A DNA stretch of 25,774 bases, taken from positions 1 through 25,774 of the forward strand of contig JABCTC010000049.1 in the NCBI GenBank assembly GCA_018238545.1. The letters are read 5' to 3'. The notes beneath the pieces were generated by a model, which was given only the letters and a program-made list of their open reading frames with translations, searched no databases and was not told the origin of the DNA. Both the position numbers and the translations under genes were made by a program. Of this stretch, positions 15,901 through 18,774 are shown in pieces. This DNA is from Candidatus Heimdallarchaeota archaeon (lineage in GTDB: Archaea; Asgardarchaeota; Heimdallarchaeia; Heimdallarchaeales; Heimdallarchaeaceae). How positions within the stretch are numbered: position 1 is the first letter of the stretch; each line of letters opens with the position of its first letter.

Positions 15901-16006
15901 TATCTCTAATCTAAAGGAATAAACCATTCCTTTTTTTCTTACCACTTTTGTATAAATTATAGCATTCTTTCTGTACAATCTTTTTGGTGTTTAAATAGAC
16001 CAGTGT

Positions 16007-16166
16007 AGATTATGTGTTGAAGGATTGTAGCTATGCACTAGTCCTATAGTGATCCTCGGGGCTACATCCAACAAAAATCTCAAAGCGAACCGTAAGCATC
16101 TTTGCATGAAGCTGTGGGCGGTGTAGGAGGGGCTGTGGCGTCCCCATGATGTGCTCAGGCACTTCT
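16007..16166 (+). ncRNA. Candidate structured non-coding RNA, family unassigned
   Basis: About 52% GC island (16021-16160, hand count) without an ORF; long hairpin, second hairpin and three-way junction. G-U pairs favour the + strand. TTTAAATA at 15990-15997. Confidence 0.55.
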
Positions 16167-16242
16167 AAAGAATTTGTACAAAATTCATGTCATTAGAACA
16201 TACAAGAAACATTTAAGATAATCCTTAATCACAGCAATAATC

Positions 16243-17301: not shown

Positions 17302-18774
17302 TCATATGCATCTATCTACAGCAGAAGAACCCCTTTCATCATATTCTGCTTTTGTTACCCAGAGGTTTCTTTCATTGAAAATTTTTAAAGAAGAAAGAAT
17401 TGATCCTCCAATCCAACTTTTAATTAATCTGTTACTATCAGCTTCAACTTTAATCTCTATATGGTCTGGTATCTTGCTTCTAATATCTGAATAGAATCTT
17501 TCCCTGAAACCTCTATATAATGTTCCTCCACCGATTAGAACAATGTTTGATAAAACAAATTTAAGCAAATCTGAATCACATTTCTGAGCAGATTCTATTA
17601 CAGCATCAGTTAAATCTCCAGGTTCCCCTGTTACACTCAATGGTTCATTTCGGAAAAGTATTTCAGGTGCTTTGAACAAAATTTCATCATATTTTACGAA
17701 ATTGTCGTTGATGATATTTGCAGATCTTATTTGTTTGTCCGTTTTTTGCCAAATCTGTTTTTCTTTCTTAGGATTTTCCGATACATAACACAATTCTTCA
17801 GTAGCATATCTTATGTTTCTATCTATGATATTTCTTTGATTTATAGTCCCTTTAAACTGAGTAATACGTTTGTTAGTATAGTCTTTCATTAATTTAGTAA
17901 CATCATTTGCACCTATATTTCGAATACTAATACTATGACTAATTAGATAACCATCATATATGGGAAGGATTCTAGTTGCAGAAGCACCAATATTTACAAC
18001 TAATCCCGTCACATTTCCATCAGCATAAAGTGACATTAACTCCTTTATTGTGAAATATACTTTGGAGATGCTAAATTGGTCAAATAGAATTCTAGCAATT
18101 TTTCTTCTAATAACCTTTGTTTGTTCATAAACTCCAATATATTCAAGCAATTTTTCCTTACGAAGAATATTTTTTGCATTTTCAGGTAGAGACGAATTGT
18201 TTATCACATCTTTTCTTCCCTTAAGGTAATCAACATAACTGTCCCTCTGAGGCCTCTCAAGAATCATTATTGCTATTTTCGAGGATTCTACTTTCATTTT
18301 CTCAAATATGTGGCTAAAGAAAATCTCAAGATGTTTTAAATCTATTTTTTCTTCTACGTTGTCTGTTTCAAGATAAACGGGAGCTTTTTTTACTATTTTC
18401 TTCTTTGGAATAACATCTAGACTTTGAATAAATGTGTCTCCATCAGTAGAATAAAAAATTACAGATTCAAAAATGTATCTTGGTTGATTTTCACCTGCAA
18501 AACCTACTTTTGTAAAACTTGATCCTAAGTCAATTACTATGGTTGTAGGATTTTTCATTCTTACAACTAATTTGACCTCCTCAATTTGATTCTTAAAAAC
18601 ACCTTGGGATTTCATTAAATCAATATTTTTTAAAAACTTAGAACATAGCTCACAATAATAACCAATTGTGATCCACTTACGTTGTTCAGTCCCCTTCCTT
18701 ATATAGACTCTCTGCATAGCTTTTCCGCAATGTTTTGGTCTAGTTTTTTGCAGTTTTTCGGGCATATCTTCCAC
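17302..18774 (-). CDS. Actin-related protein with N-terminal Zn-ribbon-like extension
   Basis: IVIDLGSSFTKVGFAGENQP, SLYADG..TGLVVNIG, PIYDGY, EELCYV, APEILF, IVLIGGGTLYRG, WIGGSILSSL and WVTKAEYDERG match actin. The N-terminus has KHCG...CELC. Confidence 0.93.
   Translation of the reverse strand: MEDMPEKLQKTRPKHCGKAMQRVYIRKGTEQRKWITIGYYCELCSKFLKNIDLMKSQGVFKNQIEEVKLVVRMKNPTTIVIDLGSSFTKVGFAGENQPRYIFESVIFYSTDGDTFIQSLDVIPKKKIVKKAPVYLETDNVEEKIDLKHLEIFFSHIFEKMKVESSKIAIMILERPQRDSYVDYLKGRKDVINNSSLPENAKNILRKEKLLEYIGVYEQTKVIRRKIARILFDQFSISKVYFTIKELMSLYADGNVTGLVVNIGASATRILPIYDGYLISHSISIRNIGANDVTKLMKDYTNKRITQFKGTINQRNIIDRNIRYATEELCYVSENPKKEKQIWQKTDKQIRSANIINDNFVKYDEILFKAPEILFRNEPLSVTGEPGDLTDAVIESAQKCDSDLLKFVLSNIVLIGGGTLYRGFRERFYSDIRSKIPDHIEIKVEADSNRLIKSWIGGSILSSLKIFNERNLWVTKAEYDERGSSAVDRCI

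Follow-up and report, generated by a model that had tools for sequence, protein, structure and literature searches.

What is a GC-rich island without an open reading frame doing between a serA-like gene and panE in a Heimdall archaeon? In the window, a stretch of 25,774 nt from Candidatus Heimdallarchaeota archaeon (contig JABCTC010000049.1), the GC content is 51% at 16015-16166 vs 33% across the whole stretch, and no ORF was found in the island. An earlier note on this DNA had placed a separately promoted structured RNA here, to be read as a novel stand-alone ncRNA or as a riboregulator of panE. Its sequence and coordinates were correct when checked, including the upstream TTTAAATA at 15990-15997 and the TTTAAG box of panE at 16212-16217. 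The Rfam scan that it had called for (gathering threshold; E<=10) gave chance hits only and no family match in the island, and ARAGORN found nothing there. Its suggestion of a likeness to the archaeal SRP Alu domain could not be upheld, as no Rfam/SRP model matched and the true SRP RNA of the genome is on another contig (C124). Further along the window, positions 17302-18774 of the minus strand carry an actin-family gene (PF00022).

Copy number, ends and insertion sites

The island was found to be part of an element of 233 bp (15961-16193), of which there are nine copies in its own genome with 81-100% identity and up to 14 copies in each of its relatives (genomes of the same family). Homology among the copies ends sharply at 15961 and 16193. 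The other copies occupy unrelated sites, and the right flanks were different in 37 cases among 38 distinct copies. In the public contigs, depth was about sevenfold higher over 15956-16193, with loose ends at 15956 and 16193. The database records carrying the element were from Heimdallarchaeota, while the core motif had no match in viral contigs. Some copies were truncated, decayed or interrupted (L004, L022, and contigs C45 and C86 of the genome that holds the window). A MITE in many copies had been named in the earlier note as the finding that would speak against its reading, and a repeat of many copies is what was found.

These observations bear directly on panE. In relatives, 19 serA-panE alleles were examined and none contained the element, which rules out a conserved panE regulator; the panE box was retained in the empty alleles of the three closest relatives. 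We consider it highly improbable that the RNA is a riboswitch or otherwise acts in cis on panE, or that it represents a new class of chromosomal ncRNA. The element does share the strand of panE and stands 50 nt before it, and read-through could affect panE in this strain, but its copies elsewhere stand at unrelated sites and it is homologous to TnpB omega-RNA (see below). We read the element as one form of an already described selfish system rather than as a control device of panE.

The junctions of the element follow a simple rule. Copies are preceded by the consensus T-T-A-T, host DNA that occupies 15957-15960 (plus strand) in the window next to the loose end at 15956, and they end in TCAT; the last two bases of TTAT (AT) are thus also the last two bases of the element. 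Two exact empty sites were available. A copy in one genome (G006) could be compared with an empty site in another (G004; L013/L184, 93.8% identity), and a full tnpB element in a third (G010; L143) with an empty site on contig C21 of the genome that holds the window. In both, TTAT is retained and joined exactly to the right flank. The dinucleotide AT occurs at both junctions and once in the empty site, and there is no net target duplication; a shared AT core and a 2-bp AT duplication fit equally well. For the copy in the window, the allele of G021 has TTAT where the right junction falls, and the comparison is not exact because about 21 nt are missing in the left flank relative to the nearest empty alleles. 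An A follows the element directly in 38 of 41 copies, which makes the target near-palindromic. No excision joint was seen in the public contigs. As far as sequence comparison goes, the mobility of the element and this junction rule are established.

A MITE of the IS630/Tc1 type with TA target duplication would also account for the TA on either side and for the imperfect inverted repeats, which are in register. The exact empty junctions, which join TTAT to the right flank, exclude such a duplication, as the empty sites are not 2 nt shorter. Moreover, no DDE_3 transposase was found in the genome, and this explanation retains hardly any credibility.

The left end (15961-15989, plus strand) mirrors the right end around TGTACA as an imperfect inverted repeat, with matches at 11 of 17 positions in the window copy and 14 of 17 in the consensus (counted by eye). 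It forms no hairpin (fold -0.1 kcal/mol, z +1.1). The right end (16170-16193, plus strand) consists of a weak, AT-rich hairpin (16170-16186) followed by the terminal TGTCAT, which reaches the loose end at 16193.

Two further insertions were observed. In L022 (1186-1500) a gene-less IS607 mini-element of about 315 bp with a CG core has split a copy of the element; the ends of this IS607 mini-element match a TnpA and 600-650 aa TnpB family of these genomes. In L021 (1300-1602) the 3' end of a tnpB gene that belongs to the element's own family holds a copy in reverse orientation, at TTAT^A.

RNA fold, pseudoknot and promoter motif

Taken alone, the window sequence folded no better than its shuffles (z 0.06 on the plus strand, 0.35 on the minus strand), and the structure drawn in the earlier note therefore needed comparative support. 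The homologues and covariation that it had asked for were found. Across 39 copies, 97.4% of the cells were paired, and 17 pairs had two-sided changes vs 6.6 in shuffles (0/500), the shuffles ignoring the relatedness of the copies. The compensatory and G-U-preserving changes lie in internal stems far from the ends and fit the plus strand.

The details of the proposed fold fared differently. The arms GGGG/CCCC and GTGC/GCAC were supported by covariation, and so were CCG/CGG and the inner stem of the second hairpin. The first hairpin stood in its core and upper stem, whereas its TGTT/AACA base was paired in only 64%. The AGGA/TTCT closure had no covariation support because it is nearly invariant; the tnpB relatives favour pairing of TTCT with GA just before GTGC, and AGAG/CTCT is changed to AGAT/ATCT in L153 and L021. 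Absent from that fold were the pseudoknot, the right-end hairpin, the ends of the element and its multicopy state.

On the plus strand, the revised structure begins with a 5' hairpin with an asymmetric internal loop (16022-16069). In its helices 1-2, 5 of 14 pairs had two-sided changes and 97-99% were paired, which points to structural selection on this hairpin. It is followed by an A/C-rich linker, 10 nt shorter in some copies, and then by the conserved AAAGCGA (together 16070-16089). With this motif, which also occurs in tnpB 3' ends, the omega-RNA core begins. Stem A (16090-16121) comprises CCG/CGG and a variable upper stem (helices 3-4) and has a homologous stem in tnpB elements. Stem B (16129-16145; helix 5) exists in several variants and its loop forms the pseudoknot. 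Stem C (16148-16165; helix 7) has three pairs with two-sided changes and is shortened in comparison with tnpB elements. The window copy itself has two stem mismatches, one in stem A and one in stem B.

The pseudoknot, of 6 bp, joins the loop of stem B (16135-16140) to the last six bases of the element (16188-16193), and all six pairs are intact in 81 of 84 elements, mini- and full ones counted together. The loop and end change together, as GTGACG/TGTCAT, GTGATG/CATCAT, GTGATT/AATCAT and GTGGTG/CACCAT, with U-A/C-G, G-C/U-A and A-U/G-C as compensatory pair types. Over 13 distinct types, 74 of 78 pairs were formed vs 67.9 in shuffles (4/5000), again with relatedness ignored. Such a pseudoknot is a hallmark of TnpB omega-RNA, and in ISDra2 it is likewise formed by the final scaffold bases that precede the guide (PMC10097598). 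Considering that it ends here on the last six bases of the element, the guide should begin at 16194. Together with the element end and the ISDra2 architecture, this suggests a guide taken from the host flank at 16194-16213 on the plus strand, a length that is itself an estimate. The predicted target would be TTAT followed by the sequence of 16194-16213, namely the empty site, with TTAT as the predicted transposon-adjacent motif (TAM). For the guide of the window copy, no other target was found in the genome at the stringency tried; the guides of other copies gave two weak AT-rich matches elsewhere in the genome.

Transcription would start from the archaeal TATA box at 15990-15997 (plus strand), which is present in 36 of 38 copies and lies 32 nt before GGATT in 34 of them, although the sequence of the spacer is more variable. 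The predicted start lies near 16019-16022. The full elements also have a TATA-like box before tnpB, and since that of L153 is nearly identical to the box of the mini-element, the promoter was probably inherited as the former tnpB promoter. Scans for bacterial promoters and terminators were uninformative, their models being bacterial and the host archaeal. Covariation and the fixed spacing of the TATA box thus favour the separately promoted, structured plus-strand RNA that had been proposed.

Probable origin from a solo tnpB family and the question of the mobiliser

The genome contains 36 TnpB-like matches, and 28 matches to the TnpB of the element's family, many of them with open frames. In one solo tnpB family (415-425 aa) the end of the gene is homologous to the 3' half of the element (blastn: 70% over 87 nt, E 5e-7) and likewise terminates in TCAT. 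The mini-elements also served to build a covariance model, which matched 17 tnpB 3' ends (E 3e-17 to 5e-9), and among the 82 genomes of the class that were searched its matches were almost confined to the Heimdall family. The whole transposon family has 20-30 members per genome. Relative to a full element, about 1.2 kb of tnpB is missing from the element, while both ends, the promoter and the omega-RNA scaffold are kept. There is a weak similarity between the 5' hairpin and the tnpB codons in whose place it stands (above shuffles, 0/300, for a region chosen post hoc). The element is thus very likely a nonautonomous derivative of a Heimdallarchaeaceae solo-tnpB transposon family.

The TnpBs of the family score as RNA-guided TnpB. 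Glycine replaces the RuvC-II glutamate in them and an alternative glutamate lies downstream (readable in L120), a rearranged pattern that defines TnpB2 / RIIr-5 and is common to Fanzors (PMC10530073; PMC10691335). A search by sequence gave no match to a solved structure.

Other arrangements of the same parts were observed. L286 (G010:C73) is a chimera in which the 5' hairpin and stem A of a mini-element are joined to a tnpB-type right end, and on its right it has a flank like the one next to L004, the truncated copy in the genome that holds the window. Other omega-RNA elements without a gene, each with a 5' hairpin and an A-rich linker, are L276 (a longer hairpin), L274 (a different one) and L265 (the same one), all with the pseudoknot between loop and end; the 5' hairpin of the mini-element is found on a different right end in both L265 and L286. 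A deletion derivative of the tnpB family of 202 bp (G000:C111:9862-10064) has neither TATA box nor 5' hairpin and was seen once.

Two other readings accept this origin and differ in what the RNA does. In the first, the RNA is a relic that TnpB ignores, its fold being kept for transposition at the DNA level or because the copies are young. The truncated, decayed or interrupted copies would suit this reading, and so would our failure to find a full-length element with exactly the right end of the window element, which would be the one with a cognate TnpB. Against it stand the compensatory changes in the internal stems, the conservation of the TATA box and its spacing, the maintenance of the pseudoknot and, as an anecdote, the single occurrence of the promoter-less derivative on C111; we regard it as unlikely. 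In the second, the RNA is a decoy or domesticated regulator, abundant enough to titrate TnpB or recruiting another protein through its 5' hairpin, and it would restrain TnpB or serve the host rather than homing. A selected 5' hairpin outside the tnpB omega-RNA core speaks for this, as do the other gene-less omega elements with the same or different hairpins and A-rich linkers (L265, L274 and L276). But the guides differ from site to site, no fixed locus is common to the genus, and one orthologous copy was interrupted (L022), all of which leave this reading with even less probability than the relic.

The enzyme that moves the element can be named with less assurance, and we file the element in neither the IS607 nor the IS200/IS605 family. 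A serine TnpA acting in trans is somewhat favoured. In a quick TnpB tree, the family grouped with TnpBs from another order in a single clade (SH-aLRT 99), and its nearest relative with a linked transposase, a tnpB gene of that clade and order, overlaps an IS607 TnpA gene (L292). Short direct motifs stand at both ends and together form an imperfect inverted repeat, TTGTC in the tnpB members and TGTACA in the mini-element. The IS607 TnpAs of this genome belong to a different IS607 family, with a CG core and a TnpB of 600-650 aa, and searches of the family found only TnpAs of that other IS607 family, none of them with the ends of the element. Scans of end pairs with other cargo and of multicopy proteins gave no candidate transposase, and another type of enzyme is a possibility that we take seriously without preferring it.

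Slightly less probable still is that a Y1 TnpA moves the element in single-stranded form, as in a classical IS200/IS605 PATE, which would concern the mobiliser only and leave the guide role unaffected. Insertion 3' of a tetranucleotide without duplication and the right-end hairpin would agree with this, and TvTnpB of the TnpB2 class is Y1-linked (PMC10530073). Yet the left end has no hairpin, no Y1 TnpA was found in 24 genomes of the genus (72-92% complete), and the five Y1 matches in the family are separate IS605 elements with different left ends. The A after the element in nearly all copies, with its near-palindromic target, also argues against Y1.

Stand-alone serine recombinases of 250-290 aa occur at G000:C6:7488, C88:39972 and C26:29240 with no obvious surrounding element, and most of the family's genomes have one to three of them. 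Directly upstream of tnpB, two genomes from another order (L305, L308) carry a conserved ORF of 244 aa without an NCBIfam match.

Comparison with known systems and proposed role

Gene-less omega-RNA elements were already known. The PATE-borne omega-RNAs of IS200/IS605 (Meers et al., 10.1101/2023.03.14.532601) likewise have both ends and an omega-RNA, no gene, and a TnpB and transposase acting in trans; they insert 3' of the TAM and take the guide from the flank. In contrast to PATEs, the Heimdall element lacks a left-end hairpin, no Y1 TnpA was found in the 24 genomes of its genus, and it has imperfect inverted-repeat ends, an internal TATA box and an extra selected 5' hairpin. With the IS607 TnpA(S)-TnpB elements (Chen et al. 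PMC6188088; CboIStron, 10.1101/2023.11.20.567912) it shares a 2-nt core without net duplication and an imperfect inverted repeat with short direct motifs at the ends (PMC6188088). Moreover, TTAT/TCAT parallels TGGG/TCGG of the IS607 system, where TAM and end also differ at position -3 (10.1101/2023.11.20.567912). Most IS607 members have a GG core, whereas the core here is AT, there is no protein gene, and no TnpA gene with the element's ends was found. The omega-RNA of ISDra2 TnpB (PMC10097598) is also composed of the tnpB 3' end and the right end, and its pseudoknot also uses the last bases before the guide. Unlike it, the Heimdall element has a different sequence and different stems, its own promoter instead of processing from tnpB mRNA, and partner nucleases with a rearranged RuvC-II (TnpB2 / RIIr-5 type).

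The aCas1-linked TnpB elements of Asgard archaea (PMC10691335) are likewise flanked by repeats, and a related subfamily in the genome studied here ends in GTCACTCAT. In contrast, the solo-Cas1 elements L096 and L114 have long perfect inverted repeats and no adjacent tnpB. The casposon-like solo-Cas1 element was observed in L114, L096 and L125, with near-perfect terminal inverted repeats of about 50 bp; it is frameshifted in G024 and truncated in the genome studied here, and more of its repeats were seen on C36 and L248. A link to aCas1 was rejected: the solo-Cas1 ends differ, and the likeness TTATAAG..TTTTTGT is off-register and was treated as chance. The Heimdall element differs from the gene-less omega-RNA elements known before in its ends, which have an AT core and resemble those of IS607, in its partner of the TnpB2 type, and in having an internal promoter and a 5' hairpin under selection.

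Based on these features, transcription from the TATA box would yield an RNA of about 175 nt that continues into the downstream flank, which would serve as the guide. Full-length elements elsewhere in the genome would supply the TnpB that loads this RNA in trans and perhaps trims it at the 5' hairpin, TnpB being able to trim its own RNA at the 5' end (PMC10278001). The complex would cut empty alleles at TTAT plus guide, and repair of the cut allele would copy the element back so that it is retained, as was proposed for the PATE-borne omega-RNAs (10.1101/2023.03.14.532601). For moves to new sites, a transposase would have to act in trans, and the somewhat favoured candidate is a serine recombinase of the IS607 type that uses the AT core.

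The analysis removes a false lead, that of a new RNA or a panE switch. It also provides a test case for TnpB guide RNAs that would act in trans and stem from elements without a gene, in the class of archaea closest to eukaryotes. The partner nucleases have the rearranged RuvC common to Fanzors, and the covarying pseudoknot fixes the boundary between scaffold and guide and predicts a TTAT TAM. As a tentative and broader hypothesis, Heimdall archaea may possess promoter-driven, trans-acting guide RNAs for Fanzor-like (TnpB2) nucleases, to which a 5' module and an A-rich linker were added repeatedly to do a job of their own (processing, stability or protein recruitment), and the TTAT/TCAT family may be moved by an undescribed AT-core recombinase.
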